Positions 11,809 through 62,679 of a stretch of 64,000 bases of DNA are shown piece after piece. Each line of letters opens with the position of its first letter. Positions within the stretch are counted from its first letter, which is position 1. A program made the translations under genes and the position numbers. The stretch is taken from NCBI GenBank assembly GCA_050329955.1, contig JBHJOH010000013.1, positions 988-64,987 of the forward strand. The letters are read 5' to 3'. The notes beneath the pieces were generated by a model. That model saw only the letters and a list, made by a program, of their open reading frames with translations. It was not told the DNA's origin and made no database searches. The DNA is from Acidimicrobiia bacterium. Its GTDB lineage: Bacteria > Actinomycetota > Acidimicrobiia > Spongiisociales > ZC4RG35.

Positions 11809-11853
11809 CGAGCTACCGCCCGCATCCGGTCCCAGAACGAGAAAGAGAGCGGG

Positions 11854-12900: not shown

Positions 12901-12903
12901 CGC

Positions 12904-25708: not shown

Positions 25709-25955
25709 GTTCCTGTGCCTGACTTTTGTGGATTCCGGCCCACCCTACGCCGACTGGCGGCCTTGTTCTCATCGACGTGGGGTGGGGGGTTCGAAAGCCC
25801 GTGCGAGAACGCCCGATCAGCTCGCGACGGAGATGCCCTACGCCTCCGCTTGACCCCATGGCTTCGCCTGGGCCGATGGACCCGTTCATGGAAGACCACT
25901 TTTTCGCGGGGCGGACAGGTCGATAGGAACCCTCGTGGCGTCGAGGGGATGTGTT

Positions 25956-43796: not shown

Positions 43797-43804
<8 letters not shown>
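42884..43804 (+). CDS. LLM-class F420-dependent oxidoreductase
   Basis: AERQGFRSAWCTHFSRGIDSLTVLAAAA...GRLVLGVGVSHRPVIE...YQRLFEREG is the typical luciferase-like/F420 family layout. Confidence 0.85.
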
Positions 43805-48265
<4,461 letters not shown>

Positions 48266-48269
<4 letters not shown>

Positions 48270-49066
48270 GTGAACGTCCTTGCCAGGTCGGATGGCTTGA
48301 ACTCGCCACGTCGTACACCGAGCGGATCGATTCGGCGAACCAAGGCGATGTGGTCGGGGTCCGGATCGGGCACGCTGCTCAGATCTTCGGCGACGACGAA
48401 GTCGAAGCCTGTGGCTGCCACCACCTCGTCGAGTGACACATCAGGAAACATCCGACGTAGCCGGATCTCGCCCTCCGGGTAGTCGAACACGCCCAGTTCT
48501 GTCACCAGCCACTGAGGGCCGCCGCCGGTGTAGCCGAGTTCGGCGCGGGTGCCGGCCGGGGTGCGATGACCGAGATCTGTGATGAAGTCGCAGGTCTCCA
48601 CCAGACAGCGGCCGCTGCGGTGGTTGGTAGTCCACACGGTCAGGTTGCGGATGGTGGCGGACAGGTTGCAGCCACCACCGCCGCCGCCGAGCTTGACCTT
48701 GGGCCCAGGCATTCCGCCGATGGCGGTGACGTTGGTGTTGCCGTGGCGGTCGATCTGTCCACCCGAGAGGAACATGCGATCGACGTCGCCCCGCACCGCC
48801 GAGTCGAAGAACTCCTCGAACCGCATCGAGTAGGCCGATCCCTTCTTGAGGGCGAGATCGTTGCCGGAGGGGGGGATGAAATCGGGCGTCGGATCGATGG
48901 CGTACATGGCGCCTTCGACCAGCATCATCGAAGGGGCGTGTGTTTGTTTGGCGAGGTGCATGGCCACCTGGGCGCAGGGGCTGCCGAAGCCGTGGAACAC
49001 CACTTCGCCGTCGGCGATCGTGCCGGCGAGGGCCACCACGAACCATTCATCGAGGGTCCAGCTCAT
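48266..49066 (-). CDS. CoA-transferase subunit B (family I, glutaconate/3-oxoacid CoA-transferase type)
   Basis: FLSGGQIDRHGNTNVTAIGG...KLGGGGGGCNL. Start placed at MSWTL (49066), giving an ATGA overlap with subunit A (the track start is 49084). Confidence 0.85.
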
Positions 49067-49977
49067 GCGAACACCTCCATCCAACGGTCGGTCGACTCGT
49101 GATAGCCGGTGATGGCCTCGAGTCGGCTCTCGCCGATCATCCGCCGGTACTCGTCTTCATCGGTGCCGAGCACGTAGCGGGCCAGATAGGTGGATGCTCC
49201 CTCGGCGGTGGCCGCCGCCCTCACGTACTCGGCGATGTGGGTGCGGTCGTAGGCGTACCCGGGGTAGCACGACGTCGGATGTGCACCGAACGGTGCTTCC
49301 ACGATCGCCGCCACCCGGTAGCCGGGAACGGTGATGCCGGCACTCGCCACCTCTTCGGTTGTGACGATCCGGTCGACGGTGGCGATCACCGCCGCCGATG
49401 CCATGGCGAAGCGTTCGTCGAGGACGTAGGGCTGCTCGAGGTGCAGGTTGCCGGCGGCGTCGCCGATCGGGGCGTGGAGCAGCGCCACGTCGGGCCGAAT
49501 CGCCGGGACCACGGTGAGTGTCTCACCGGTGAAGGGGCACTCCACCTCGGCGTATTCGGGGTGGAGGGCGCGGATGTCGGTCCCTCGAACACCTCGCACC
49601 GGGATGAACGGGATGCCCATCTCGGCTGCCCGCAACTGGTTGAGCATGGTGTCACAACAGCTCTCGCGGATCTCCAGCGACTGGGACTCTGCCGCTCGCC
49701 GGAAGGCCGGGGCCAGCCCGTGATCCTGTTCGAACCCGACGTAGCTCTCCTCGCTCACCGCCAACAGTCCGGCGGCGATGAGGAGGTCGACATCGATGGA
49801 ATGGGCCGAGCCAACCGCGTGGAGGCCGCCGATTCCGGAGCGGATCAGCTGTCGGACCAGCGCCATCGGCAGCCTGGCGGAGAGGCCGCCTCCCAACGCA
49901 ACCACCGAGCCTGGAGAGACCAGGCGAGCGGCCGAGGCGAGGTCGATGAGTTTGTCGGTGCCCAGATGGAACGGCAT
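49063..49977 (-). CDS. CoA-transferase subunit A
   Basis: KLIDLASAARLVSPGSVVALGG...LRAAEMGIPFIPVRG...DVALLHAPIGDAAGNL is the typical family I CoA-transferase A subunit. Confidence 0.85.
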   Translation of the reverse strand: MPFHLGTDKLIDLASAARLVSPGSVVALGGGLSARLPMALVRQLIRSGIGGLHAVGSAHSIDVDLLIAAGLLAVSEESYVGFEQDHGLAPAFRRAAESQSLEIRESCCDTMLNQLRAAEMGIPFIPVRGVRGTDIRALHPEYAEVECPFTGETLTVVPAIRPDVALLHAPIGDAAGNLHLEQPYVLDERFAMASAAVIATVDRIVTTEEVASAGITVPGYRVAAIVEAPFGAHPTSCYPGYAYDRTHIAEYVRAAATAEGASTYLARYVLGTDEDEYRRMIGESRLEAITGYHESTDRWMEVFA

Positions 49978-49984
49978 CAGAACC

Positions 49985-50752
49985 TCACTGTGCGGTCATG
50001 CCGCCGTCGACCGCGAATATCGAGCCGGTCACGAAGCTGGCGTCGTCGGAAGCGAGATAGAGCGCAGCCTGGGCGATCTCCATCGGCACACCGATCCGGC
50101 CGATCGGGTACTTGAGGGCGGTCTTGGCGAGTCCTGCCTCGAGGTCGCCGTCGCCGCGCATCCGCATGAGGGGCTCCATCAGGGGGGTGTACACCGTCCC
50201 GGGACAGAGAGCGTTCACACGGATCTTGCGGGGGGCGAGGTCGATCGCCATCGATTTGGTCAGTGACACGACCGCTCCCTTGGCGGCGCAATAGGCGGCG
50301 AAACCGGCCACGGCCACCAGTGCCGCCACCGACGCCTGATTGACGATGGCGCCGCCTCCGGAAGCGTCCAGGTGGGGAATGGCGGCCTTGGAGGTGAGGA
50401 ACGTGCCCTTGACGTTCACATCGAAGCAGCGGTCCCAGTCGCTCTCGTCGGCATCGGCGACGCTTCCCTTGGAGTTGACCCCGGCGTTGTTGTAGACGAT
50501 GTCGAGCCTGCCGAGGCCGGCGGCGGCTTCGTTCACCGCTCGGGAGATGTCGGTGGCGTCGGCCACGTTGCCGGACACGGCAATGGCGGTTCCTCCGGCG
50601 CGGCTGACGATCGCCGCCGTTTCCTGAGCGGCCGCCAGATCGATGTCGACCACCGCAACCGACGCACCCTCGGACGCGAACAACTCGGCGGCCGCTCGTC
50701 CGATTCCCGATCCGCCCCCGGTGATGAGTGCAGCCTTGCCTTCCAGTCTCAT
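49985..50752 (-). CDS. Short-chain dehydrogenase/reductase (candidate hydroxyalkyl-CoM dehydrogenase)
   Basis: MRLEGKAALITGGGSGIGRA, NNAG, S...YCAAK catalytic set, C-terminal FAVDGGMTAQ. Trimmed from track ORF 49985..50887. Confidence 0.88.
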   Translation of the reverse strand: MRLEGKAALITGGGSGIGRAAAELFASEGASVAVVDIDLAAAQETAAIVSRAGGTAIAVSGNVADATDISRAVNEAAAGLGRLDIVYNNAGVNSKGSVADADESDWDRCFDVNVKGTFLTSKAAIPHLDASGGGAIVNQASVAALVAVAGFAAYCAAKGAVVSLTKSMAIDLAPRKIRVNALCPGTVYTPLMEPLMRMRGDGDLEAGLAKTALKYPIGRIGVPMEIAQAALYLASDDASFVTGSIFAVDGGMTAQ

Positions 50753-50768
50753 GCGATTCCTTTCTTGG

Positions 50769-52121
50769 TCATGCCGGTTGTTTGGTCGCGGCCTGTGCGG
50801 CGCGCAGGATCGGGTCGTAGACCGGTGCATAGGGAGGGGCGTAGGAGAGATCGAGGGCGCCGAGATCGTCGACGTCGAAACCTGCATGGAGGGCGGTGGC
50901 CACCACGTCGATGCGTTTGGCAGTGGCAGGGTCGGTCGAGATCATCTGGGCACCGAGAAGTCGTCCGCCCGGCTCGTGTACCAGCCGGGTCCAGGTCGGT
51001 GCCGCGCCCGGGTAGTACTTCGCACGGGATCCGGCAGTGGAGTCCGACGCCATCGCCTCGAGCCCGGCAACCCTCGATTCCGACAGCGTGAGGCCGGTGC
51101 GCGCAACGGTCAGATCGAAGATCTTGGCGACGGCCGTCCCCACCATTCCCCCGAAACGGGCGTCACCACCGGCAGCAACGATGCCCGCCACCCGCCCGGT
51201 CTTGTTGGCGGTTGGCCCCAGCGCGATGTGGGCCGGGGCCCCCAGCACCAGATGGTGGACTGCGGCACAGTCTCCGGCGGCGAAGACGTTGGGAAGCGAG
51301 GTCCGCATCCGGTCGTCGACCTCGAGAGCGCCGTTCGAATGCGTGGACGCCCCCGCATTGGCGGCGAGCCCACCCCCGGGGCGGATACCGACCGCCATCA
51401 CCACGGCGTCGAAGGTCCGCACGCTGCCATCCGAGAGGGCGGCGGTGGAGCCATCCCACCCGGTGAGCCCGATACCCGTCAGCAGCTCGCAGTGCGAGGA
51501 GACCTCAGCCTCGACCCGGGCAGCAGCGTCGGGGTCGAGGTTGGGCATCACCCGGTCGGCTGCTTCGACCACGGTGACCCTGCACCCCGCTTCGGTGAGG
51601 GCATCGGCCATCTCGAGCCCGATGTAGCCGCCGCCAACCACCAGGACCGAACGAACGGCGCCGGAGATGACGTCCTCACGGAGGGTGATGGCGCCCTCGA
51701 GTGTTCGCACGGTGTGCACGCCCGGCCCGTCGACGCCCGGTATCGGAGGCAGCGCCGGTGAGGCCCCGGCGGCGACGATCAGCGTGGTGTACGTGATGGC
51801 GTCGTCGCCCGCTGCGGAGCGAAGGGTCACTCGCTGGTCGCTCGCATCGATGGAGACGACCCGGGTGTGGAGCCGGAGATCTATACCCCGCTTGGTGCGG
51901 AAGTCATCGGGAGGAACGCTGACGAGGTCGAGTGGATCGGAGACCAACCCCGCCACGTAGTACGGGATCCCGCACAGACCCCAGGCGGCAAACCCGGAGG
52001 CCTCGGCCACTACGATCTCGAGGTCGCCGTCGAACCGCCGCGCCGAGGACGCGGCGGACATGCCGGCGGCGCCACCTCCGATCACAACGAGACGATCCGT
52101 CACGGACTCCGGCTCCTCCAT
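50769..52121 (-). CDS. CoA-disulfide-reductase/NADH-oxidase-like single-cysteine pyridine-nucleotide-disulfide oxidoreductase
   Basis: LVVIGGGAAGMSAA; active-site-type FAAWGLCGIPYYV (Cys50 codon 51972..51974); a second dinucleotide fold VLVVGGGYIGLEMA; AAGDCA; a dimerisation domain. Confidence 0.85.
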   Translation of the reverse strand: MEEPESVTDRLVVIGGGAAGMSAASSARRFDGDLEIVVAEASGFAAWGLCGIPYYVAGLVSDPLDLVSVPPDDFRTKRGIDLRLHTRVVSIDASDQRVTLRSAAGDDAITYTTLIVAAGASPALPPIPGVDGPGVHTVRTLEGAITLREDVISGAVRSVLVVGGGYIGLEMADALTEAGCRVTVVEAADRVMPNLDPDAAARVEAEVSSHCELLTGIGLTGWDGSTAALSDGSVRTFDAVVMAVGIRPGGGLAANAGASTHSNGALEVDDRMRTSLPNVFAAGDCAAVHHLVLGAPAHIALGPTANKTGRVAGIVAAGGDARFGGMVGTAVAKIFDLTVARTGLTLSESRVAGLEAMASDSTAGSRAKYYPGAAPTWTRLVHEPGGRLLGAQMISTDPATAKRIDVVATALHAGFDVDDLGALDLSYAPPYAPVYDPILRAAQAATKQPA

Positions 52122-52240: not shown

Positions 52241-53281
52241 TCAGATTTCGGATCGCACCAGTTCGACGGCCTTGCCCATGTTGCGGAGCTTGCCATAAGC
52301 GACCGTTCGGCTGAAGTATCCGAGCCCGCAGTCGGGGGAAATCAGCAACCGGTCGGGCGGAACGATGTCGAGCCCCTTCCGGATCCGCTCGGCGATCTGC
52401 TCGGGTGGCTCGACCATCGTGTTCTTTGCGTCGACCACGCCGATGCCGAGTACCTTGTCGGCTGGGAATCCGCGGAGTGCCTCCAGCTCGCTGAAGTCCT
52501 TGTTGCAGGTCTCGATGTGGATCACGTCGACTGGCGACTCTCTGAACAGGCCGAGCATGCTGGCGGCATGGTCGTCGTAGACATCTCGCTGACCGTCGAC
52601 GCTTCCGTAACACACATGCCAGAACTTCAGTGCTTCGACACCTTCGAACATCGTGTGCTGTACTTCGATTTGCCACAGGTCGTTGGTATATGGCGGGAGC
52701 ACGTCAATCAACTGGATGGCCTCGAGTCCCTGATCCACCAGGTACTTGAGCTCCCTGTTGAGGGCCACCGCAATGTCGCGTGCCAGCGCGATGTTGTCCT
52801 CGTAGAATTCGTTGTGCAGGATCACGCTCTGCTGGGCGGGACCGAGCATGGCCACCTTGAAGGGCTGGTCGGTGGCACGCTTCATGGCGTAGACCACGCC
52901 CTCGAAGATGGACCGAACCCACTCGACCTTGTCGTGCACGACACCCTTGTAGAAGGGCGCATACTTCGCCCCGTCGCCGGGAGGTCCGTAGGGAGCGATG
53001 CCACCGAGCATTTCAGGGATGTAGTGGAAGATCGGCTCGAGCTGGAAACCCGGCGCCTCCCATTCGTAGTACTGGGCACCATCGCACAGGACGTCGAGGC
53101 CCGCCTCCTCCTGCTCGACAGCGCAGAGTTTGACGGCATCTTCATAGGCCACCCGCAGATTGTGGCTGCGATAGGTGGGCTCGGTACGGCTGCCGAACAC
53201 CCGCCCCTGGAGCCAGTGGGGCCTAGGGAAGGCAGAAACCGCCGAGCTGGGGAGTAGTACGTCCTCACCGCGGATCTCCAT
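52241..53281 (-). CDS. MetE-C-terminal-like (cobalamin-independent methionine synthase family) zinc alkyltransferase, paralogue 1; candidate thiol (CoM) alkyltransferase
   Basis: MEIRGEDVLLPSSAVSAFPRPHWL. Zinc-ligand motif FWHVCYG (52610..52618) and LLISPDCGLG (Cys 52327..52329). GGAGGTG Shine-Dalgarno sequence before ATG 53281. The track's 556-aa version (to 53911) is an over-extension. Confidence 0.85.
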   Translation of the reverse strand: MEIRGEDVLLPSSAVSAFPRPHWLQGRVFGSRTEPTYRSHNLRVAYEDAVKLCAVEQEEAGLDVLCDGAQYYEWEAPGFQLEPIFHYIPEMLGGIAPYGPPGDGAKYAPFYKGVVHDKVEWVRSIFEGVVYAMKRATDQPFKVAMLGPAQQSVILHNEFYEDNIALARDIAVALNRELKYLVDQGLEAIQLIDVLPPYTNDLWQIEVQHTMFEGVEALKFWHVCYGSVDGQRDVYDDHAASMLGLFRESPVDVIHIETCNKDFSELEALRGFPADKVLGIGVVDAKNTMVEPPEQIAERIRKGLDIVPPDRLLISPDCGLGYFSRTVAYGKLRNMGKAVELVRSEI

Positions 53282-53450
53282 GCGCACCTCCGGTTTCGAA
53301 CCACGTGTCCCGTCCGTCGGGCACGTTTCGTGACGATAGGTACGGCTGCTCCCCCACGCCTCCTGTGGTCGCGGTCGGAGTCGAAGACCGTCCTGTCGGG
53401 GTGAAAGCCGCCTTGGTACCTTGGCTCGGGAGGATGAACGGCTGACGGTC

Positions 53451-55112
53451 TCAGTTCTGCCGGAGCGCTCGCAAGGTCTCCCAGGCACGGCAGGCGAGCT
53501 GAAGGTTGAAGCGGGTGTCAGGATGGTTGAGGTCGTATCCGCTGATCTCGCGGATGCGTTGCAATCGGTACTTGAGCGTCGATCGGTGGATGAACAGCGT
53601 CGCCGACGTCTCGTCATAGTTGCCGCCGCACTCGAGGTAACGAGACAACGTGTCGACGAGGCCGGCGTTTCGTTTCGTGTCGTACTCGAGCAGGGAGCCG
53701 AGCCAGCGCCGAACGTATCCCTCCGTGGCCGAGGGGTCTTCGACTTCGGCGAGGAGCTGGAATACCCCGAGATCGTCGTAACACGTCGCTTGGTCCTCCC
53801 AGGCAGCCGCCCGTTGAACCTTGAGAGCCGACTCGGCCTGGCGGAGCGAGCGGGGAAGCTCCGATACGGACTCGCAGCTCTGGCCGACGCCCACGCGGCA
53901 GCGTCCCCCACGTAGCTCGGCGAGGATCGCGGTCCTGAACTGGTTCCAGTCGGTATCGCGATCGGCCAACACCACCACTTGGGCTCCGCGGCGGATCAAG
54001 AGCGAGCCCACCGGCATGTCGCGTGCAACCCTCCTCACGGTGTGGAGGAATGCTTCGCCGTCATCGGCACCGGTGGCGCCTTCGACGATCACCACGCGAT
54101 GCGGCCGTTCTAGGTCGTATCGGAGGGCCTGCGCCCGACGCAGGGCACTCTCCTCGTCCGTCCCGGCGAGGAGCTCCTCCACCAGGTCGCGCCGTACCCG
54201 GAGTTCGCTCTCGGCGAGGCTCCGTAGTCGGGCGGTCTCCATGGCGAGCACGGTGAGCCCGTGCTCGAGGGCGGTGAGCTGCTGGTCGGTGGCCGTACCC
54301 TCCGGGTCGATCAACACCAGTGCGGCGATGACGTCGGGTTGTGGCTCGGTCACCCCCATCCAGCGGTCCTCCACCCGGATCGGCCGGGATTCCTTGAGTG
54401 CCCGTCGCAGGAGCTGTTCGCGCCGGGCGGCCGCTTGTTTTGGATAGGGGTCCGGGCGTCCGGGTCCCGCCCAGGCCCGGAGGTTGCCGAAGCGATCCTC
54501 GATCGCCACCGGCAGGCCTGTGAGGTCGTGGACGGCCCGGGCTATGCCGTCGCGGCCCTCGCCGGATGCTGCCACCGCCGTCAAACGGGCATGGATCTCC
54601 ATGCTGCGCTGCAACACGCCGAGGGTGTGATGGAGTTGTCCGTTCGCCCGCTCCGCCTCGGCGACGGCCCGCTGTTCCTGTTCGTGGAGTCGCCGGTTGG
54701 CGATGGCGGCGCCGGCATGCTGCGCCAGCGCTCGCAGCAGGAAGTGTTCCTCATCGGAGGGATCAGGCACGCAATGTGCCACGAGCCATCCGGCGTGTCC
54801 GTGGCCCGAGTGCACCGGGTAGGCCCAGGCCATCGCCCCATCGGACATGCTCACGTGCCCTCCGGCCGCACCGGCATGATCGAGAATGTCCGAGACCGTG
54901 AGCTCACCCACGGGGACCGGGTCGTCGTCGAGTTCGAAGCGGGCCCACGTGCATGGGGCGAGCGATCGAGCGGCCCCGGCGGCCAGCTGCAGGATCTGCT
55001 CCTCGTTGGTGCTCTCCATCATCAGCTGGGCCAGGACCAGCAGGCTGCGGAGGCGGGACAGCGAGTCTCTGTGGGCGGCACCGCTCTCCATCGATGCGCC
55101 CGCGTCGATCAC
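53451..55112 (-). CDS. PucR/CdaR-family transcriptional regulator with an N-terminal GAF-like sensor region
   Basis: C-terminal PucR HTH TSATLFIHRSTLKYRLQRIREISGYDLNHPDTRFNLQLA. The N-terminal ~150 aa are GAF-like. Confidence 0.85.
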   Translation of the reverse strand: MIDAGASMESGAAHRDSLSRLRSLLVLAQLMMESTNEEQILQLAAGAARSLAPCTWARFELDDDPVPVGELTVSDILDHAGAAGGHVSMSDGAMAWAYPVHSGHGHAGWLVAHCVPDPSDEEHFLLRALAQHAGAAIANRRLHEQEQRAVAEAERANGQLHHTLGVLQRSMEIHARLTAVAASGEGRDGIARAVHDLTGLPVAIEDRFGNLRAWAGPGRPDPYPKQAAARREQLLRRALKESRPIRVEDRWMGVTEPQPDVIAALVLIDPEGTATDQQLTALEHGLTVLAMETARLRSLAESELRVRRDLVEELLAGTDEESALRRAQALRYDLERPHRVVIVEGATGADDGEAFLHTVRRVARDMPVGSLLIRRGAQVVVLADRDTDWNQFRTAILAELRGGRCRVGVGQSCESVSELPRSLRQAESALKVQRAAAWEDQATCYDDLGVFQLLAEVEDPSATEGYVRRWLGSLLEYDTKRNAGLVDTLSRYLECGGNYDETSATLFIHRSTLKYRLQRIREISGYDLNHPDTRFNLQLACRAWETLRALRQN

Positions 55113-55708
55113 GATGATCGGGCCAGGAACTGGTCGGGTTCGACGTACCAGGGGTTGTCGACGACCATGCCCGACATCAGCACCTTCGGGTGGGTGTGGA
55201 GGATGTCGATGAGCACTTGGCCGTCGGTGAACTGCTCGAGGTCATAGAGACAGAGGATGGTCTGGGGGTACTTGGGGAGGAATCGGTTGAGCTCGGCTTC
55301 ATAGGCGACGAGCAACTCGACCCCGGGGAGGTCTTTGAGGGCCCAGGTCATTTCGCCGGCGGCGCGCATGAACTCGTATCCGTCGTCGTCGAATGCTGCT
55401 CGTGCTGCTTCCGCCCAGAACGAGAGCATCTGATCCGGGCAGAAGAATCCACCAAAGAGGTAGGAATCCTCCGAACGAAGGACCGAGAGCTGGCCGCGGA
55501 CTCGGCGGGCTTCGCCCACGATCATCTTGGCGTGTTCAGGGTCGCCCCGGTCGAGCACGCACACGCAGCGGTCGCCCGCTTCGAGTCCTGCCCGGAGGTA
55601 CGGGAACAGGATCTGATCCCGCTGGTCGTCGCCGCGATAGAACGCGCAGATGTGGTCTCCGACGTGCATCTCCACGCCGGGCAGACCCGTCGATACAGAC
55701 AGTCGCAT
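55109..55708 (-). CDS. MEDS-domain (methanogen/methylotroph DcmR sensory) protein
   Basis: GDHICAFYRGDDQRDQILFPYLRAGLEAGDRCVCV...ILCLYDLEQF...ILHTHPKV matches my recollection of the MEDS pattern. The stop overlaps the PucR start. Alternative start 55750. Confidence 0.75.
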   Translation of the reverse strand: MRLSVSTGLPGVEMHVGDHICAFYRGDDQRDQILFPYLRAGLEAGDRCVCVLDRGDPEHAKMIVGEARRVRGQLSVLRSEDSYLFGGFFCPDQMLSFWAEAARAAFDDDGYEFMRAAGEMTWALKDLPGVELLVAYEAELNRFLPKYPQTILCLYDLEQFTDGQVLIDILHTHPKVLMSGMVVDNPWYVEPDQFLARSS

Positions 55709-55925
55709 TGCTCCGCTCCCGAGCTTGCGTTGGGTGGCGAAGCGTATCAACGGCTGGATATCTACGGCTCGTCACAGCAGGATTACTTCCGTCGAGAATC
55801 CTGACCTTGGAGGACAGGGTCTGCTCGCGGGTGACTCCGTAGCGTTCCAGGACACCCCAGCAGGTGCCGGTGGCCGGATCACCGACCGGCTCAGACCGGG
55901 CCGGATGTCTCCCAGGAGGTTTGCC

Positions 55926-56657
55926 ATGGAACGTCGGACAGCGGTCGTGACCGGTGGGGGATCGGGGATCGGTTTCGCCACCTCCGAACGTCTCAGGGCC
56001 GATGGGTTCATAGTGGTTGTGCTCGACCTCGACGGTGCCGCGGCCGGACGGGCCGCCGGGGATGGATTGGGAATCGAGACCGATGTCTCCGATCCGGGAT
56101 CGGTAGAGGCGGCCTTCCGACGGATCGCCGAGGAGGTGGGGCCGGTGGACGTGCTCGTCAACAATGCCGGCATCACCGGTTCGCAGCAGGCGACCCGCCT
56201 GCACGAGACGCCTTTGATCGATTGGGACCTGGTCACCGCCGTCAACATTCGGGGTCCATACCTCTGCTCACGGGCCGTGCTGCCCTCGATGGTCGAGCGC
56301 CGCTCGGGCCACATCATCATCATTGCGTCGGTAGCCGGCCTCAATCCGTTTCCGGGCCGGTCCGCCTATTCCACATCGAAGGGCGCTGCCTTGATCATGG
56401 CAAAGTCGATAGCCATCGACTATGCCGCTGATGGCATCCGCGCCAACGCGGTGTGTCCCGGCATGGTGGAGACGCCGATGACCCAGTGGCGACTCGACCA
56501 GCCGGATCTGAGGGCCGCAGTCGAGTCGCAGGTGCCACTGGGCAGGGTTGCCCAGCCCGAGGACATCGCCGACGCTGTCGCAGTTCTCGCTTCTGGCCAC
56601 TTGTCCTATATGACCGGGCATGCCCTGGTGGTGGACGGTGGGTGGACCGCCAGGTGA
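55926..56657 (+). CDS. Short-chain dehydrogenase/reductase with R-hydroxypropyl-CoM-dehydrogenase-like arginine placement
   Basis: MERRTAVVTGGGSGIGFA, NNAG, S...Y148STSK152, with Arg at Y-3 (R145, 56358..56360) and at Y+41 (R189, 56490..56492). Trimmed from track ORF 55650..56657. Confidence 0.88.
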   Translation: MERRTAVVTGGGSGIGFATSERLRADGFIVVVLDLDGAAAGRAAGDGLGIETDVSDPGSVEAAFRRIAEEVGPVDVLVNNAGITGSQQATRLHETPLIDWDLVTAVNIRGPYLCSRAVLPSMVERRSGHIIIIASVAGLNPFPGRSAYSTSKGAALIMAKSIAIDYAADGIRANAVCPGMVETPMTQWRLDQPDLRAAVESQVPLGRVAQPEDIADAVAVLASGHLSYMTGHALVVDGGWTAR

Positions 56658-56878
56658 CGTCCGGCAACTTGCACCGTCAGTGGGTGCGGCCCGGTCCTGT
56701 CAGGACAGGTTTCCCGGCCGGGTTCGCCCTCCCATCACGTCGCCGTTGACCGGTCCTCGACATAGCGTCGCCTCATCGCCGAGTCGGTTCGAGGAGGTGG
56801 AGGCAGCGCTGACGGAAGGCCTGAACCCCGGGACACGCCAGAAAGGCGGCCCGAGTCGTTCGATTTCGGAGGAGAGAT

Positions 56879-57988
56879 ATGCAGATTCGTGGTGAAGAGG
56901 TAACGATTCCGACCTCGATGGTGGGCAACTATCCGAACCCCCGGTGGTGGGACGCCCACTGTGTACGGGACTGGACCGGTGACCAGGAGCCGCCGGACGC
57001 GTTCAACCGGGAGGCGTTGCAGGACGCCATGGCCGCACTGGTGACCGACCAGGAACAGGCCGGGCTCGACATCATCACAGATGGTCGTCTCCATGGTGAC
57101 AACTACGCCGACCAAGCGTTGTACTACTACTACAAGCGACTCGGGTACGACCTCAAGGGCGGATTCCTGGGCTTCCCCATTTACAGCCGTCTGCATGCCG
57201 CCAGCGCCACCCAGGAAGTCAAGCGCCGTGGGGCGATCATGGTCGAGCAGGCCAGAGCGCTGAAGCGGGCGACCAACAAAGCCACCAAGGTTCAGTACAC
57301 GGGTATCCAGGTGCTCGGACAGGCCACCAACGACCTTTTCTACGAGTCGGGACGCGACCGGGCCATGGCCATCGCCGCCGCCATCAACGAGGACATCCTC
57401 GAGGTCGATGCCATGGGGATCGACTTCATCCAGCTCGACGAATTCACCTGGCCGTACTTCTACGAGGACTGGGCGATCGAGGCCTTCAACCGCGCCGTGC
57501 AGGGTGTCAAGAACGCCAAGATCATCGTCCACATCTGCTGGGGCAACTGGGGCGGCACCCCCGCTTACTACCCGGATGAGACCGCCGAGGCCGGTGAGAT
57601 CTTCGACCTCACCCAGCGCAAGGGCGAAGCGCCGTCGGCGACCGCCTCGGTGATTCCGAAGTCCTACGAGGCCAACATCAACGTGTTGAACCTAGAGAAC
57701 TGCGGCCGGCGCGCTGACGACCTCAGCGGGCTCGACGTCATCAAGACCCACCCGTTGCCCGAGAACGTCCAGTTCTGGGCGGGTGTGATCGATGTGAAGT
57801 CGACCATCACCGAGACCGCCGAGGAGGTGGCGGATCGCATCCGCAGACTCCTCGAGTTCGTGCCGGCGGATCGCCTCGGCGTGACCACCGACTGCGGCCT
57901 CATCCTCCTGCAGCGGTACATCGCCGTCGACAAGCTCCACGCCCTGGTCGAGGGAACCAAGATCGTCCGGCGCGAGCTCGGCGTCTGA
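56879..57988 (+). CDS. MetE-C-terminal-like zinc alkyltransferase, paralogue 2; epoxyalkane:CoM transferase (EaCoMT/XecA/EtnE)-like
   Basis: MQIRGEEVTIPTSMVGNYPNPRWW. Zinc motif IIVHICWGNW (H218/C220, 57530..57538) and GVTTDCGL (C339, 57893..57895). 369 aa. GGAGGAGAG Shine-Dalgarno sequence upstream. Confidence 0.88.
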   Translation: MQIRGEEVTIPTSMVGNYPNPRWWDAHCVRDWTGDQEPPDAFNREALQDAMAALVTDQEQAGLDIITDGRLHGDNYADQALYYYYKRLGYDLKGGFLGFPIYSRLHAASATQEVKRRGAIMVEQARALKRATNKATKVQYTGIQVLGQATNDLFYESGRDRAMAIAAAINEDILEVDAMGIDFIQLDEFTWPYFYEDWAIEAFNRAVQGVKNAKIIVHICWGNWGGTPAYYPDETAEAGEIFDLTQRKGEAPSATASVIPKSYEANINVLNLENCGRRADDLSGLDVIKTHPLPENVQFWAGVIDVKSTITETAEEVADRIRRLLEFVPADRLGVTTDCGLILLQRYIAVDKLHALVEGTKIVRRELGV

Positions 57989-58060: not shown

Positions 58061-59476
58061 ATGGTCACCGACACGAAACCCGACGCCGCCGCTGAGATCG
58101 CTGAGATCGTCGGGCGCGCCCGGCGGGCTCAGGCCGCCGTTGCCGACTACAGCCAGGCGCAGGTCGACGAGCTCGTCACCGCCGTCGCCTGGTCGGTTGG
58201 TCGCGACGACCGGGCCGAGTCGCTCGCCCGGACCGCCGTCGACGAGGGCGGGTTCGGTACCTACGACGACAAAGTGACGAAGATCAAGCGCCGGGTGTTC
58301 GGTGCCCTCGCCGACATGCGCCACGTCAGGACCGTCGGCGTCGTCGAGGAGGACCCGGAACGGGGACTGGTGAAGATCGCCAAACCGGTTGGCGTGGTGG
58401 CAGCGCTCATCCCCACCACCGGCCCGGACGCCACACCCCCCATGAAGGCCATGTTCGCGTTGAAAGGCCGCAACGCCATCGTGATCGCAGCGCACCCGCG
58501 CACTCAGGGGAGCTCTCGAGCGGTGGTCGACGTGATGCGGGCGGCCTGCGAACAGGTAGGCGCCCCGGCCGATCTGATCCAGATCGTCGAACGACCGTCG
58601 ATCGCCAAGACCCAGGCCCTCATGGCCCAGGTCGATCTGGTGGTCGCCACTGGCGGTGCCGCCATGGTGAAGGCCGCCTACTCGTCGGGGACCCCCGCCT
58701 ATGGGGTCGGGGTGGGCAACTCGGTGCATGTGGTCGACGAAACCGCCGACATCGACGATGCCGCCGCCATGATCGCCGCCGCCAAGACATTCGACCTCGC
58801 CACCAGCTGCCTGGCCGACAATGCCGTGGTGGCCGAGGCCGCGATCGCCGACCAGCTCATGGAGGGACTCGTCGCCCGGGGCGGGCACCGGTGCGACGAT
58901 CACGAGAAGGCGCTCCTCCAGAAGGCCATGTGGCCCGACGGAGGGCACATCCCCACCATCGACGTCATCGCCAAGCCCGCCGCACACATCGCATCATTGG
59001 CCGGTTTCGACATCCCCGCCGACCGCACCTTCCTGATCGTCGATGAGGACGGCGCCGGCCCCGACCATCCGTTCTCCGGTGAGAAGCTGTCGGTGGTCCT
59101 GGCCTTCTACACCTACCGCGGTGGCATCGGAGGTGCGGTCGAGATCGTCAACGCCATCACCGACTACCAGGGACTCGGCCACACCTGTGGGATCCACACC
59201 TCGAGTGATTCCAACGTCGACGCACTCGCCACCGGCACCCGCACCGCCCGGGTGATGGTGAATCAGAACCTCAACGAGGGCGCCGGCAGCGCTCGCAACG
59301 GATTGCCATTCACGCTGTCGCTCTCGTGCGGGACCTGGGGCGGGAACGTCACCACCGAAAACGTCAACGCCCGCCACTTCGTGAACCTCACCTGGGTGTC
59401 CCGTACCATTCCGCCCAAGGCGATCGACGAGTCCGAGCTATTCGCCGTACACTGGGATCGATACGGACGTGGCTGA
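58061..59476 (+). CDS. CoA-acylating aldehyde dehydrogenase (SucD / EutE-PduP / SauS-like branch of the ALDH superfamily)
   Basis: KPVGVVAALIPTTGPDATPPMKAMFALKGRNAIVIAAHPR, GGAAMVKAAYSSGTPAYGVGVGN, catalytic Cys in KTFDLATSCLADN, and C-terminal GTWGGN. Confidence 0.85.
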   Translation: MVTDTKPDAAAEIAEIVGRARRAQAAVADYSQAQVDELVTAVAWSVGRDDRAESLARTAVDEGGFGTYDDKVTKIKRRVFGALADMRHVRTVGVVEEDPERGLVKIAKPVGVVAALIPTTGPDATPPMKAMFALKGRNAIVIAAHPRTQGSSRAVVDVMRAACEQVGAPADLIQIVERPSIAKTQALMAQVDLVVATGGAAMVKAAYSSGTPAYGVGVGNSVHVVDETADIDDAAAMIAAAKTFDLATSCLADNAVVAEAAIADQLMEGLVARGGHRCDDHEKALLQKAMWPDGGHIPTIDVIAKPAAHIASLAGFDIPADRTFLIVDEDGAGPDHPFSGEKLSVVLAFYTYRGGIGGAVEIVNAITDYQGLGHTCGIHTSSDSNVDALATGTRTARVMVNQNLNEGAGSARNGLPFTLSLSCGTWGGNVTTENVNARHFVNLTWVSRTIPPKAIDESELFAVHWDRYGRG

Positions 59477-60383
59477 CCTACCGACTCCGAACGCACGGTC
59501 ACACCCCTACCGAGGGTTGTCGGTTCAGCATGTCGATCAGACCCCCGATCCCGACTTCATGCGCTCCTACCTGCTCGGACGGGAGGTCTACCGGCGGTCC
59601 GACTACATCGCCCTCATCCATGGTGACGATGTCGGTTTGGCCACCGTGTCGAAAGAGTCCACCGAACCGCTGTTCTCGCCCGTGACCGAGGTGGAGGTGT
59701 GGGCCGGGCCGGATCGCATGCTGATGGTCGAGGATCCGAGCTGCGACGTCGGCAACGCCACCGCACTCGCCCGAACTGCATTGGCCAATGCGCGACCTGG
59801 CGTATCGGGATATCTCATCAAGGGCCAGTTCGAGCACATCAACTTCATCTGGGAGCCGGCGCCGATCCGCATCCATGTCACCGAGGTCACGCCCCCGGAT
59901 CCGCCCAAACTGTTCGTGCAGGCAACGCAGGTGGTTGCCTTCGATGAAGATCTCCAACCGATCGACTTGGTGGTCGAGGCCGTCACCTTCCCGGATCTGG
60001 CCGACTCGGCTCCACCATCCGACGCCTATCTGCTTCCCTGCCGGGGTTCCGGGGCCGATCTCCCGGGAGAGGTGGCGTTCCTCGACACCCGTCCGGCAGA
60101 TCGCCTCGACTGGACCCTGATCGGATGTGAACGCTCGATGCAGTTCCATCGTCACTTCTACGGCGACGAGCCGCGTCAGGTGGACATCTGCCCCAAGGTC
60201 CGGGTGGCCGGGGAGGATCCGGAAGGTCTGTGGCTGGTCAAGTGCTGCCTGATCGAGCGGGGCATCGAGTACGAGCGGGGGAGAGCCGTGGTGCCGTGGG
60301 GTTCGAACCTCGACGAAGTGCGGTCGGCTCTCAGGTTGCTCACCGGCATCGACCAGCCGGCTGATTCGTTCGCCTGGACGTGA
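59469..60383 (+). CDS. Hypothetical protein, translationally coupled on both sides within the CoM operon
   Basis: ORF only, no family recognised. GTG 59469 overlaps the ALDH stop, and its own stop overlaps the GTG of the next gene (GTGA at 60380). The Cys/His-rich C-terminal part reads LIGCERSMQFHRHFYGDEPRQVDICPKV...LVKCCLIERG. The start is uncertain. Confidence 0.6.
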   Translation: MADLPTPNARSHPYRGLSVQHVDQTPDPDFMRSYLLGREVYRRSDYIALIHGDDVGLATVSKESTEPLFSPVTEVEVWAGPDRMLMVEDPSCDVGNATALARTALANARPGVSGYLIKGQFEHINFIWEPAPIRIHVTEVTPPDPPKLFVQATQVVAFDEDLQPIDLVVEAVTFPDLADSAPPSDAYLLPCRGSGADLPGEVAFLDTRPADRLDWTLIGCERSMQFHRHFYGDEPRQVDICPKVRVAGEDPEGLWLVKCCLIERGIEYERGRAVVPWGSNLDEVRSALRLLTGIDQPADSFAWT

Positions 60384-61726
60384 GCATCCACCTCGCCGAC
60401 TCCCGGGTGTACGGACACCTGTGGGCCACCGATGAGGCGCGTGCCATCCTCGGCGAGGAGGCGCGGTTCGGTGCCTGGCTCGATGTGCTCGCCATGCTCG
60501 CCGAGGCCCAGGCGGAGGTCGGCCTGGTCCCGTCCGAAGCCGCCGCCGGCATTCGTGCCCACGCCGACCTCTCCTTGATCGACCTCGATCGCGTCGCCGC
60601 CGAGACCCGTGCCAGCGGACACTCCACTCTCGGGTTGATTCGGGTGCTTCGATCTGTCCTCCCGGAAGACGCTCGCGAGTGGGTCTATTACGGCGCCACC
60701 GTCCAGGACCTCACCGACACCTGGACGTCACTGGTCATGCGCCGGGTTGGCGATCTGCTCGAACGGGACCTGGCCCGAATCGAGGCAGCCTGTCTGCTGC
60801 TGGGACAGGTCCACCGGGATACCCCGATGTTGGGGCGGACCCACGCCCAGCCCGGGCTGCCGATCACCTTCGGGTTCAAGGTGTCGGTGTGGGCAGCCGA
60901 GGTCCGCCGTCACCGCCGACGGCTGGCGGAGGGCCGGGTCCGGTGGGAGCTGGTCCAACTGGGCGGGGCCCTGGGCACGATGGAGTTCTGGGGATCCCAG
61001 GCGATACCGATGCTGGAGGCGTTCGGTCGGCGCAGCGGGCTCGGCGTCCCCACCATCGCCTGGATCACCTCCCGGGACGGAGTGGCCGAGTTCACTCACC
61101 TGTTGGCGATGGCGGCCAGCACGATCGCCAAGATCGGCAACGAGATCATGGAGTTGCAGCGGCTCGAGATGGGCGAGCTCCGGGAGGGGTTCATCGCCGG
61201 GACCGTGGGCAGCATCACCATGCCCCACAAACGGAACCCCGAGATCTCCGAGCACCTCGACACGCTGGCGCGTCTGGTCCGTTCCAACGCCGCCGTTGTG
61301 ACAGAAGGCATGGTTCAGCTCCACGAGCGCGACGGGCGGGCATGGAAGGCCGAATGGATCGCGGTGCCTGAGGCGTGCGCCATGACCCTCGCCGCCACCG
61401 GCTTCGCCGTGACGCTGCTCGAGGGTCTGGAAGTGATGTTCGAACGGATGGCCCACAACATCGATGCCCAGAACGGGTACATCTTCTCGGAGCCTGTCAT
61501 GCGGGCCCTCGCCGACATCATCGGCAAACACACCGCGCACGACGTCGTCTACGCCGCGGCCATGAACGGATTCGAAGCGGGCGTGTCACTGGTCGACGCC
61601 CTCCAGGCCGATCCCCGGGTGTCCGGCCATCTCGGCAGAGATCAGATCGAGGCCCTTCTCGATGTCGGGAAGGCGACCGGGTCGGCGCCCGCCTTCGTTG
61701 ACCGGGTTGCCGAGGCCCTCAGATGA
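60380..61726 (+). CDS. Aspartase/fumarase-superfamily lyase (adenylosuccinate-lyase / 3-carboxymuconate-cycloisomerase-like); XcbC/XcbD-type candidate
   Basis: GATVQDLTDTW, GRTHAQPGLPITFG, and the signature loop GSITMPHKRNPEISEHL. Confidence 0.88.
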   Translation: MSIHLADSRVYGHLWATDEARAILGEEARFGAWLDVLAMLAEAQAEVGLVPSEAAAGIRAHADLSLIDLDRVAAETRASGHSTLGLIRVLRSVLPEDAREWVYYGATVQDLTDTWTSLVMRRVGDLLERDLARIEAACLLLGQVHRDTPMLGRTHAQPGLPITFGFKVSVWAAEVRRHRRRLAEGRVRWELVQLGGALGTMEFWGSQAIPMLEAFGRRSGLGVPTIAWITSRDGVAEFTHLLAMAASTIAKIGNEIMELQRLEMGELREGFIAGTVGSITMPHKRNPEISEHLDTLARLVRSNAAVVTEGMVQLHERDGRAWKAEWIAVPEACAMTLAATGFAVTLLEGLEVMFERMAHNIDAQNGYIFSEPVMRALADIIGKHTAHDVVYAAAMNGFEAGVSLVDALQADPRVSGHLGRDQIEALLDVGKATGSAPAFVDRVAEALR

Positions 61727-62679
61727 GAGCAGGCACCGCGCCCCGGATCTCTCTGGCGCTGCTCCCCACTCCTTTGGTGCCCGCTCCTCGTCTCTCGGCC
61801 GAGATCGGCGTGGAGGTGTGGTTCAAGCGCGACGACCTGACCGGTCTCGGGCTCGGGGGCAACAAGGTCCGTGCGCTGGAGTTTCTCATCGGTGCCGCCG
61901 AAGCCGCCGGTTCGGATTGCCTCATCACCGGCGGCGGCCCGCAATCGAACTGGGTGATGCTCGCCGCGCTGGCCGCCATCACCCGGGGACTCGACGCTCA
62001 TGTCGTCTACTTCGGACCGGAGGTGGAATCCACCGGGAACCTTCAACTCCTGCGCAGCCTTCCAGGCATCGAGATCACCTTCACGGGCGACCCGGTGCGC
62101 GCCTCGGTCGATCCCGTCCTCGACGCCGTGGCCGGTCGCCTGTCCTCGGCCGGCCACCACCCATTCCTCATCGGGAGAGGCGGCGCCGGGCCCATCGGCG
62201 GGCTGGGGTATCTCCACGCCACACTCGAGATCGACCGGCAGGCCGAACAAACCGGATTCGCAACGGTCTGGACCGCCACTGGGTCGTGTGGGACCCAGGC
62301 CGGGCTGGTGGCAGGACACGCCGTCTCAACTCATCGCCGCCGCGTGGTGGGGGTGTCGGTGCACCGACCGGTCGAGGAATGTGTGGAGCGCATCGGGGCG
62401 ATCGCCCGGGGAACGCTCGAGTTGTACGGCGCCTCCGCTGCCCCTCATCCGGATTGGGAGGTGCTCGGAGGCCAACTGGGACGCGACCCGGCCGCCGAGC
62501 GTCGGGTGGAAGAGGCGGCACGGCTGGTGGCGAGGACCGAAGGAGTGTTCCTCGACCCCGAGTTTGCCGCCCCGGCGATGGCCGAGCTCGTCGCCCGGGC
62601 GGCGGAAGTCGAGGGCCCGGTGCTGTTCCTGGTCTCCGGGGGCGGTCCCACCCTGCTGACCGAGGGGGCGTTCGCATGA
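61723..62679 (+). CDS. PLP-dependent ACC-deaminase / D-cysteine-desulfhydrase-family enzyme; XcbE-type candidate
   Basis: LPTPLVPAPRLSAEIGVEVWFKRDDLTGLGLGGNKVRALEFL (PLP Lys in GGNK), GGGPQSNW, TGSCGTQAGL. ATGA overlaps on both sides. Confidence 0.88.
   Translation: MRAGTAPRISLALLPTPLVPAPRLSAEIGVEVWFKRDDLTGLGLGGNKVRALEFLIGAAEAAGSDCLITGGGPQSNWVMLAALAAITRGLDAHVVYFGPEVESTGNLQLLRSLPGIEITFTGDPVRASVDPVLDAVAGRLSSAGHHPFLIGRGGAGPIGGLGYLHATLEIDRQAEQTGFATVWTATGSCGTQAGLVAGHAVSTHRRRVVGVSVHRPVEECVERIGAIARGTLELYGASAAPHPDWEVLGGQLGRDPAAERRVEEAARLVARTEGVFLDPEFAAPAMAELVARAAEVEGPVLFLVSGGGPTLLTEGAFA

Follow-up and report, generated by a model that had tools for sequence, protein, structure and literature searches.

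The window, a stretch of 64,000 nucleotides from an Acidimicrobiia bacterium, contains two intact Meth_synt_2 (PF01717) genes, hereinafter designated Para1 and Para2. Para1 (52,241–53,281, minus strand) encodes 346 aa beginning MEIRGEDVLL, and Para2 (56,879–57,988, plus strand) encodes 369 aa beginning MQIRGEEVTI. The two proteins pass the Pfam gathering cut-off of 21 bits with 76 and 68 bits, respectively, and each gene has a GGAGG ribosome-binding site 6–7 nt 5' of its start codon. Both open reading frames are as described in an earlier note on this DNA, which took them for clearly diverged MetE-like paralogues; their identity over the full length is 28% (E = 4e-44). The M-x-IRGE-x-V start pointed out in that note is present in both but is not peculiar to them, as an M-x-I/V-R-G-x-x-V/I start is common to all EaCoMT (epoxyalkane:CoM transferase), Para1 and Para3 proteins.

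Para1 is the first catabolic gene of its strand, and is preceded on the same strand by genes for a MEDS-domain protein (55,109–55,750; Pfam MEDS) and a PucR/CdaR-type HTH regulator (53,451–55,112; Pfam GGDEF_2 and HTH_30), with a gap of 169 bp. Para2 is the second plus-strand gene, 221 bp 3' of an SDR gene (55,926–56,657; Pfam). These positions slightly correct the description of the paralogues as heading the two operons. Pfam and NCBIfam place a CoA-disulfide-reductase-like (CoADR-like) flavoprotein (50,769–52,121) directly downstream of Para1, followed on the minus strand by an SDR (49,985–50,752), CoA-transferase A/B (49,063–49,977 and 48,266–49,084), an ADP-forming acyl-CoA synthetase (46,224–48,269), a 2-KPCC orthologue (44,654–46,222) that keeps the signature residues C82/C87/H137/F501/H506, and ComA/XcbB (43,797–44,657). 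The Para2 operon continues on the plus strand with a SauS-like acylating aldehyde dehydrogenase (58,061–59,476; Pfam, NCBIfam) and, assigned by Pfam, NCBIfam and tblastn, DUF7714/XcbA (59,469–60,383), ADSL-like XcbC (60,380–61,726), the PLP enzyme XcbE (61,723–62,679) and ASL-like XcbD (62,688 to the window end at 64,000, where it is truncated); the roles of XcbA-E have been described (PMC9457059).

The minus-strand set at 43,797–52,121 is syntenic with pNOCA01 of Nocardioides sp. JS614. Specifically, the genes following Para1 for the CoADR-like protein, SDR, CoA-transferase A/B and ADP-forming acyl-CoA synthetase share 49–67% identity with the EtnE system of JS614, and the MEDS and PucR pair is also present in the JS614 etn cluster. 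In JS614, however, the MetE-like gene is EtnE, which lies after the synthetase and is followed by etnABCD, whereas the window has neither an EtnE-type gene nor a monooxygenase and the set is headed by Para1 instead. An alkene monooxygenase, which would supply epoxides, is absent from the 64-kb window and was seen in only one of 51 related loci, a point against the reading proposed below.

The H-x-C…C zinc pattern reported for both paralogues is confirmed, and it extends to the fourth MetE ligand, a Glu equivalent to E. coli E665. In Para1 (minus strand, 52,328–52,618) the ligand codons are H222 (52,616–52,618), C224 (52,610–52,612), E257 (52,511–52,513) and C318 (52,328–52,330), at alignment positions that correspond to H641/C643/E665/C726 of E. 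coli MetE. In Para2 (plus strand, 57,530–57,895) they are H218 (57,530–57,532), C220 (57,536–57,538), E273 (57,695–57,697) and C339 (57,893–57,895). The earlier coordinates are correct for WHVC, VHIC and the Para2 cysteine; the position of 52,327 for the Para1 cysteine is off by one base. Para2 H218/C220/C339 align with H218/C220/C341 of XecA, the same numbers that the earlier note gives for Xanthobacter EaCoMT.

By sequence and context, Para2 is a canonical zinc epoxyalkane:CoM transferase, because it is 80% identical to the biochemically characterised XecA of Xanthobacter autotrophicus Py2 (Xaut_5047, EC 4.4.1.23), falls inside the XecA clade with a bootstrap of 100, contains the EaCoMT-specific residues N17/R22/R70/R116 and adjoins a complete pathway of a 2-KPCC orthologue, SDRs and XcbA-E CoM biosynthesis genes. 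Identity to the protein in the EtnE position of JS614 is 49%, and close relatives of Para2 carry the source name '2-hydroxypropyl-CoM lyase'. XecA and Para2 share length class, zinc ligands and neighbours (SDR, 2-KPCC and Xcb genes), and differ in that the host of Para2 is an Acidimicrobiia MAG with no alkene monooxygenase on the contig. Para2 is thus the paralogue that fits the expectation of one probable epoxide:CoM transferase at this locus. The accompanying premise that known systems have a single EaCoMT is not borne out: pXAUT01 has two 2-hydroxypropyl-CoM lyase genes, as also stated in PMC11507031, and at least two MetE-like genes lie within 10 kb in 48 of 80 related loci, with at least three in eight.

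Para1 and Para2 are different enzymes rather than variants of a single one. Para1 is only 28–30% identical to Para2, XecA and EtnE (29% to XecA, and 29–30% to EtnE of the ethene and vinyl-chloride oxidisers JS614 and Mycolicibacterium spp.). In the phylogeny, Para2 groups with XecA and Para1 forms a separate clade, each with a bootstrap of 100. The EaCoMT clade has a bootstrap of 100 and the union of Para1 with Para3 one of 98; in the neighbour-joining tree Para1 and Para3 together appear, weakly (bootstrap 64), as the sister group of EaCoMT. Members of the Para1 family share 63–82% identity and were found in 135 species genomes, mostly of soil Actinomycetes, and also in Burkholderiales, Alphaproteobacteria and Chloroflexota MAGs; Para1 itself matches P0001 of an Acidimicrobiia MAG at 100% identity. 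Cultured carriers include Actinomycetospora endophytica, Nocardioides marmoriginsengisoli and Kineosporia sp. R_H_3. Among 1.84 billion representatives only 32 match Para1 at E ≤ 1e-30, and scores drop from 449 bits for its own cluster to at most 266 bits for the full-length relatives that come next. H222/C224/E257/C318 are invariant across the family, alignment columns average 75% identity over orders and phyla, and the AF2 model (pLDDT 88.8) has a MetE/MesD barrel (TM 0.79), so that Para1 has the marks of a functional zinc enzyme.

Grouping of both proteins with housekeeping MetE, which would have spoken against the earlier proposal, is not seen. Neither reaches any NCBIfam methionine-synthase cut-off (Para1 scores 178 bits at best, where 406 are required), and the homocysteine-binding Ser/Glu/Asp triad is absent from both in the alignment, with MetE S433/E484/D599 (roles in PMC7857596) replaced by A17/A69/I192 in Para1. 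Similarly, EaCoMT N17/R22/R70/R116/D187 correspond to Para1 A17/H22/A69/W121/I192, and the basic residues R22, R/K70 and R116 conserved in EaCoMT are missing from the Para1 alignment, although R20 and K106 are present. The thiol side of the predicted Para1 pocket is thus lined unlike that of MetE and EaCoMT. On the electrophile side the likeness to EaCoMT is confined to two tyrosines: Y107 and P197-Y198 do not vary in either Para1 or EaCoMT, but this constancy does not extend to Para3 or the remaining MetE-like proteins, an argument that draws on gap-rich alignment columns and on analogy with epoxide hydrolases. Judged from these comparisons, Para1 belongs to neither the EaCoMTs nor the methionine synthases but to an undescribed, narrow, tightly conserved family specific to CoM clusters. 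We found no literature on this family, and no orthologue on pNOCA01, pXAUT01 or the NBB4 plasmid.

In other genomes Para1 keeps exclusive company. CoM-pathway markers are present in 50 of the 51 Para1 loci with full 10-kb flanks, and 59 of 74 loci have a PDH-type E1α/E1β pair directly upstream, E1β on the same strand; the E1β-Para1 gap has a median of 87 bp when measured from tblastn hits and is 11–17 bp where genes were called. The MEDS and PucR pair flanks this E1α-E1β-Para1 module in most related loci. Para3c likewise occurs in ComA-Para3c-E1α-E1β operons, and Para3a/b lie beside a non-homologous 587-aa thiamine-diphosphate (TPP) enzyme of the ALS/Xsc/HACL family in six of six loci. No dedicated E1αβ adjoins Para1 in the window, where the sole E1αβ/E2 set (11,836–14,921) is 38 kb away and 34–44% identical to the Para1-linked type; coupling to a TPP enzyme therefore cannot be obligatory.

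Four other readings of Para1 have to be weighed. As a very divergent EaCoMT isozyme, it would redundantly perform the Para2 reaction on CoM and epoxyethane or epoxypropane, consistent with the shared fold, zinc site, gene clusters and two tyrosines found otherwise only in EaCoMT, and it could be the entry enzyme in L058/L091, L087 and L008, whose 10-kb surroundings show no EaCoMT. The low identity, the separate clade and the replacement of every EaCoMT-specific pocket residue make this unlikely, as does a TPP-enzyme coupling not seen for EaCoMT in classical systems; moreover, because most loci have one or two bona fide EaCoMTs alongside Para1, which is nevertheless conserved at 63–82%, a non-redundant role is indicated. 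A further reading, to which we give a similarly small chance, has Para1 cleave a C-S bond, or act on a thioether rather than a free thiol: zinc would coordinate sulfur either in a CoM thioether or in an intermediate that E1αβ has formed on TPP, and Para1 would release or recycle CoM as a 'lyase' partner. The close spacing of E1β and Para1, with probable translational coupling, the insertion of Para1 between E1β and E2 in L004/L005, and the formal status of EaCoMT as a lyase, with the name 2-hydroxypropyl-CoM lyase in use, fit such a role. Para1 occurs, however, with no adjoining TPP enzyme in the window, L008, L035, L058 and L087, and we know of no precedent for physiological C-S cleavage in the MetE family.

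Because R22, R/K70 and R116, the obvious sulfonate-binding candidates, are missing, CoM may not be the thiol of Para1, or may be bound differently. Alkylation of CoA, mycothiol, cysteine or a protein thiol by a parallel epoxide or electrophile detoxifier merely travelling with CoM clusters would also agree with the CoA-disulfide-reductase-family flavoprotein directly after Para1 in the window and with loci of the L010/L016 type, where genes for CoM biosynthesis are absent from the surrounding 10 kb. Against it stand the CoM-pathway genes in nearly all full-flank loci and, in several loci, a single operon of Para1 with CoM biosynthesis (E1α-E1β-Para1-XcbD). For mycothiol in particular, the family extends to Burkholderiales, Alphaproteobacteria and Chloroflexota, which are not known to make it, and we regard a non-CoM thiol as quite improbable. 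Identification of Para1 as a folate-independent 'core' methionine synthase (MesA-D-like) present in the cluster by chance is hardly credible. Its size, its best PDB and NCBIfam matches (3rpd MesD, 87 bits; PRK04326, 178 bits) and the MetE label given to its relatives by JGI pipelines suggest it, and Para1 indeed resembles MesD (PDB 3rpd) and the MetE C-terminal domain in its (βα)8 barrel (TM 0.77–0.79), His/Cys/Glu/Cys site and single domain of about 340–350 aa. But A17, A69 and I192 replace S/E/D residues that the majority of the other core MetE-like proteins aligned retain, the scores of both window proteins are below all curated thresholds, no MesX/DUF1852 or corrinoid protein is seen beside Para1, and its context is CoM-specific.

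We infer instead, with about an even chance of being right as a whole, that Para2 is the EaCoMT and Para1 a second, non-redundant CoM-linked zinc thiol alkyltransferase feeding a TPP-dependent step; action on another electrophile, stereoisomer or thiol is plausible, and the separate family, the altered pocket lining and the tie to CoM clusters point broadly that way. In Para2, a zinc-bound CoM thiolate would open the epoxide to a 2-hydroxyalkyl-CoM, to be processed by the neighbouring SDRs and 2-KPCC orthologue. S-alkylation of an activated thiol is most likely the chemistry of Para1 as well, since the modelled MetE-type barrel and the zinc site are kept, and that thiol is most probably CoM, given the exclusive genomic company. 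Para1 would attach CoM either to an electrophile outside the range of EaCoMT or to one that EaCoMT converts with different regiochemistry. A second kind of epoxide, the alternative carbon of the epoxide ring and a carbonyl compound with an alpha substituent are the candidate targets. The resulting thioether, at the carbonyl oxidation level, would then be the substrate of the TPP enzyme, in most genomes the PDH-type E1αβ translationally adjacent to Para1, which by analogy, and with chemical precedent, may eliminate the thiolate from the beta position of the TPP enamine to give acyl-TPP and free CoM. The analogy, a mechanistic one, is with Xsc and with PDH E1 acting on 3-fluoropyruvate, where a TPP enamine has a beta-leaving group, here beside a sulfonate-bearing C2 unit; the partner enzyme reaches no curated family threshold, and its leaving group would be a thiolate (CoM) rather than sulfite or fluoride. 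The TPP enzyme linked to Para3 belongs to the same ALS/Xsc/HACL superfamily as Xsc, and the aldehyde dehydrogenase of the cluster is SauS-like. In the window, the genes next to Para1 on its strand are instead the CoADR-like, SDR, CoA-transferase and acyl-CoA synthetase set.

Two intact open reading frames of the Meth_synt_2 (MetE-like) family lie where the earlier note had placed them. Para1 is encoded on the minus strand at 52241-53281 (346 aa, N-terminus MEIRGEDVLL) and Para2 on the plus strand at 56879-57988 (369 aa, N-terminus MQIRGEEVTI). Both pass the Pfam gathering score, each is preceded by a GGAGG ribosome-binding site, and the two proteins share 28% identity. The zinc ligands of Para1 are H222 and C224 (within 52610-52618), C318 (52328-52330), and E257, while those of Para2 are H218 and C220 (within 57530-57538), C339 (57893-57895), and E273. 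The glutamate, which is the fourth ligand in MetE, is kept in both paralogues. The ligand coordinates read initially from the sequence are correct within one base, the C318 codon of Para1 being the one that is off, and the ligand numbering quoted for Xanthobacter XecA (H218/C220/C341) is that of the protein. The description of the two genes as heading operons is approximate, in that Para1 starts 169 bp after the same-strand MEDS-PucR pair and Para2 starts 221 bp after an SDR gene.

The minus-strand genes are, in order, MEDS, PucR, Para1, a CoA-disulfide-reductase-like flavoprotein, an SDR, CoA-transferase A and B, an ADP-forming acyl-CoA synthetase, a 522-aa disulfide oxidoreductase, and ComA. 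The plus strand carries an SDR, Para2, a SauS-like acylating aldehyde dehydrogenase, DUF7714, an ADSL-like lyase, a PLP enzyme, and an ASL-like lyase, the last of which is incomplete and continues past the window end. This gene content is that of the coenzyme M (CoM) alkene/epoxide clusters on Nocardioides JS614 pNOCA01 and Xanthobacter Py2 pXAUT01. With 66% identity to XecC, the 522-aa oxidoreductase retains C82, C87, H137, and the F501/H506 dyad, the signature of a 2-KPCC orthologue; this carboxylase-specific dyad is described in PMC8358701. XcbA-E constitute a complete bacterial pathway of CoM biosynthesis (PMC9457059), and homologues of all five are present in the window (the DUF7714, ADSL-like, PLP, and ASL-like proteins, together with ComA). 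Because that pathway is already complete, Para1 is unlikely to participate in CoM biosynthesis.

The ORFs scanned across the 64-kb window include no alkene monooxygenase of the soluble di-iron or copper type, and etnABC occurs within 10 kb in only one of 51 related loci (L066). An evident supplier of the epoxide is therefore lacking on the contig and, within 10 kb, in nearly all related loci. CoM clusters lacking a monooxygenase have been reported in methanotrophs, and the window cluster resembles them (PMC11507031).

A search for an operator shared by the upstream regions of both paralogues yielded only the 9-mer CGGGACACG and CAGGAC half-sites, which are expected at about chance level in DNA of 67% G+C, and a shared operator was therefore rejected. 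A perfect 6-1-6 palindrome, GTCCTG-T-CAGGAC, lies at 56694-56706 (plus strand), ~175 bp upstream of Para2, and CAGGAC half-sites reappear in other intergenic regions of the cluster.

Several other genes of the window deserve mention. A TIGR03564 F420-dependent LLM oxidoreductase gene (42884-43804, plus strand) adjoins ComA, and the same family borders the JS614 etn cluster (L001 35341-35902) and recurs in a Para1-bearing locus (L088 3771-4688). Next to it lies the gene of a 554-aa protein (41089-42753, minus strand) that has no Pfam or NCBIfam match in our scans; a precomputed PF27054 match is listed for this protein type in locus L006. The window also contains a heliorhodopsin gene (24941-25708, minus strand; PF18761, 322 bits) and, at 25935-33515 (plus strand), an ORF of 2526 aa whose predicted product, with its nine SdrD B-like repeats, DUF11, and related Ig-like domains, is a giant surface or adhesin-type protein.

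The earlier note held it probable that one of the paralogues is the epoxyalkane:CoM transferase (EaCoMT), and by sequence and gene context this is Para2. Para2 is 80% identical to the biochemically characterised XecA and 49% identical to the JS614 protein at the EtnE position, and several sources label its close relatives 2-hydroxypropyl-CoM lyase. A neighbour-joining tree built from 73 MetE-like sequences (vectorised Kimura distances, 100 bootstraps) places Para2 inside the XecA clade (100/100 bootstraps), itself within the EaCoMT clade (100). H218, C220, E273, and C339 align with the zinc ligands of XecA and MetE, and the residues at the homocysteine positions (E. coli S433/E484/D599) are N/R/D. 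The neighbours include SDRs, the 2-KPCC orthologue with its F501/H506 dyad, and the XcbA-E homologues. Judged by its sequence, Para2 is an ordinary, canonical EaCoMT orthologue. The premise that known systems carry a single EaCoMT does not stand, as pXAUT01 has two (see also PMC11507031); among the 80 related loci, 48 have at least two MetE-like genes and eight have three or four.

Para1 shares only 28-30% identity with Para2, XecA, and EtnE, and in the same tree its family is monophyletic with a bootstrap of 100. Para2 groups with XecA/EtnE and Para1 does not, lying outside in its own clade. The related Para3 types, MetE-like proteins from the same loci with 35-40% identity to Para1, join it in a clade with a bootstrap of 98 that is adjacent to but outside the EaCoMT clade (100); the union of the two clades has a bootstrap of 64. 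Metagenomes contain hundreds of Para1 relatives at 63-82% identity, nearly always 346 aa long. P0001, from an Acidimicrobiia MAG, is 100% identical to Para1, and the window itself is an Acidimicrobiia MAG contig. When 1.84 billion cluster representatives were searched exhaustively with HMMER, only 32 hits to Para1 reached E<=1e-30; the representative of Para1's own cluster scored 449 bits and the next full-length proteins, with ~40% identity, at most 266 bits, and hits as a whole lay mainly at ~30% identity. In a scan of one genome per species, a Para1 relative was present in 135 species, of which 80 loci were retrieved. The carriers are mostly MAGs of soil Actinomycetes, with a few MAGs of Burkholderiales, Alphaproteobacteria, and Chloroflexota. 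Cultured carriers are Actinomycetospora endophytica and two more Actinomycetospora strains, Nocardioides sp. CPCC 206347, N. marmoriginsengisoli, and Kineosporia sp. R_H_3. Two variants (P0032 and P0119) are C-terminal frameshifts. The 72,556 plasmids searched, among them pNOCA01, pXAUT01, and the NBB4 plasmid, contain no Para1 orthologue. The open-access texts consulted mention neither such a second family nor a link between EaCoMT and thiamine diphosphate (TPP) enzymes, a silence that does not show that none has been described.

The zinc ligands are invariant in every MetE-like group aligned, H222/C224/E257/C318 of Para1 included. The AlphaFold (AF2) model of Para1, a MetE-type barrel predicted with confidence (pLDDT 88.8), superimposes on MesD and MetE C-terminal domains with TM scores of 0.77-0.79 (0.79 to MesD, 3rpd); there is no EaCoMT structure in the PDB. 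E. coli MetE residues S433, E484, and D599 bind homocysteine in MetE and MesD (PMC7857596). The corresponding columns are S, E, and D in most other core MetE-like proteins, N, R or K, and D in EaCoMT, and A, A, and I in Para1. On the thiol-binding side, the invariant, EaCoMT-specific residues N17, R22, R/K70, R116, and D187 (Para2 numbering), of which basic residues R22, R/K70, and R116 are conserved only in EaCoMT, are replaced in Para1 by A17, H22, A69, W121, and I192, which are invariant or almost so across the Para1 family. Para1 bears R20 and K106 of its own in place of the EaCoMT basic residues. Y107 and P197-Y198 occur without exception in the Para1 family and in the EaCoMTs but are not conserved in Para3 or other MetE-like proteins. 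The best NCBIfam methionine-synthase scores are 178 bits for Para1 and 171 bits for Para2, both below the cut-off of 406. By the earlier note, a grouping of both proteins with housekeeping MetE-like enzymes would have told against its reading; on the replaced homocysteine residues, the missed curated thresholds, and the gene context, a housekeeping methionine synthase was rejected for both genes. Judged by these features Para1 is not a methionine synthase, and a core enzyme of that kind, with which it shares the fold and the zinc site, is an extremely unlikely identity for it.

Gene neighbourhoods were analysed by searching the 80 species loci with 24 query proteins (tblastn). Of the 51 loci with full 10-kb flanks, 50 carry one or more CoM-pathway markers, and 45 contain a PDH-type E1α/E1β pair, which belongs to the TPP enzymes. 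In 59 of the 74 loci with sufficient upstream sequence, the gene immediately preceding Para1 on its strand is E1β, in a translationally adjacent arrangement with 11-17 bp between the called genes; an EtnE-type EaCoMT stands between the two in about nine loci. E2 follows Para1 only in the Solirubrobacterales-type locus, and in almost all loci the E1α/E1β pair comes without E2. The commonest layout comprises MEDS-PucR-2KPCC-SDR-SDR, then PucR-E1α-E1β-Para1-MEDS, an opposite-strand aldehyde dehydrogenase, and finally the CoADR-like protein, CoA-transferases, acyl-CoA synthetase, EtnE-type EaCoMT, ComA, and further genes. Examples of the E1α/E1β pair adjoining Para1 (loci L008-L087) are L088 7960-11041 and L003 7963-11041. 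An apparent natural E1β-Para1 fusion (P0010, 540 aa) was rejected as Rosetta-stone evidence, since it stems from a gene call at a contig end that ran through the intergenic spacer. On plasmids, no orthologue of the Para1-linked E1β was found above 60% identity.

The window belongs to the minority of loci, with L008, L035, L058, and L087, in which the adjacent E1αβ is missing. A complete E1α/E1β/E2 operon at 11836-14921 (minus strand) was considered as a dedicated partner of Para1 and rejected, since its identity to the Para1-linked E1αβ is no more than 34-44% and it includes an E2 of its own; it probably encodes a general, housekeeping 2-oxoacid dehydrogenase.

The Para3 genes have TPP-enzyme neighbours as well. 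Para3c is found in ComA-Para3c-E1α-E1β operons, while in each of the six loci with Para3a/b the neighbour is a TPP enzyme of 587 aa from the ALS/Xsc/HACL superfamily, which is unrelated to E1αβ. Thus, the whole clade of Para1 and Para3 is coupled to TPP enzymes of two non-homologous folds, unlike EaCoMT on the classical plasmids, for which no such coupling is seen. Para3a/b represent a third MetE-like type (35-39% identity to Para1; L093 3311-6161, and also L009, L010, L016, L045, L054, and L055), and the 587-aa enzyme next to them scores below every curated family threshold. In the Para3a/b loci two SDRs flank an α/β-hydrolase, and an α/β-hydrolase also adjoins Para1 in Kineosporiaceae (L091 8746-9651).

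Taken together, the Para1 family is new within the EaCoMT/MetE-like zinc alkyltransferases and has a new conserved partner. It is specific to CoM clusters and usually co-transcribed with a TPP enzyme, and Para1 itself is probably an active, conserved zinc enzyme of a distinct family. As a general statement, there is about an even chance that Para1 is a non-redundant CoM-linked alkyltransferase. It would activate a thiol, most economically CoM, and alkylate it with an electrophile, or at a position, other than that used by EaCoMT; the tyrosines common to Para1 and EaCoMT hint at an epoxide. The suggestion in the earlier note that the second paralogue may act on another electrophile or thiol is thus reasonable and gains in motivation. 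Those tyrosines, and the shared fold, zinc site, and kind of gene cluster, would also fit a redundant EaCoMT isozyme, which is unlikely in view of the separate clade, the family-wide replacement of the EaCoMT-specific residues, and the presence of bona fide EaCoMTs beside Para1 in most loci. The same replacements would suit a transferase for another thiol, a reading we judge very unlikely; the family keeps to CoM clusters.

The conserved partner suggests a continuation of the alkyltransferase reading, in which the carbonyl form of the Para1 product would be the substrate of the TPP enzyme. One option is an Xsc-like beta-elimination of the thiolate, giving acyl-TPP and free CoM, which would be a carboxylation-independent alternative to 2-KPCC. 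This specific TPP-elimination pathway is possible but unlikely. Close spacing to E1β would also fit a Para1 that is itself the C-S-cleaving partner of the TPP enzyme; this, too, is improbable. Returning to Para1 as a transferase, we tentatively propose, as a speculative reading, that the Para1/Para3 clade and the adjoining TPP enzymes make up a second branch of bacterial CoM metabolism that has so far gone unrecognised. In this branch the zinc transferase would make a CoM thioether, and the TPP partner, a PDH-type E1αβ or, interchangeably, an ALS/Xsc-family enzyme, would free CoM from the 2-oxo(aldehyde) thioether by beta-elimination, so that the acyl unit would arise directly and no carboxylation or reductive cleavage would be needed.

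To our knowledge, bacterial CoM chemistry has been known from one transferase type, EaCoMT, in a handful of cultured alkene oxidisers. The Para1 family is a second, strongly conserved zinc-enzyme family built into CoM clusters, and its carriers number well above a hundred soil actinobacterial species, most of them uncultured. Its members are routinely mis-annotated as methionine synthase, and surveys that use etnE/EaCoMT as the only marker overlook part of the CoM-linked gene repertoire. The repeated pairing with thiamine-dependent enzymes of two unrelated folds is a testable lead to new CoM-dependent reactions, and the existence of several cultured carriers makes enzyme expression and gene knockout possible. 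The pairing of Para1 with a TPP enzyme may bear on downstream steps of ethene and vinyl chloride assimilation. If it is real, the second branch would supply the unproven steps from 2-oxoethyl-CoM to acetyl-CoA in ethene/vinyl-chloride-type pathways and would widen the range of electrophiles handled via CoM in soil Actinomycetes.
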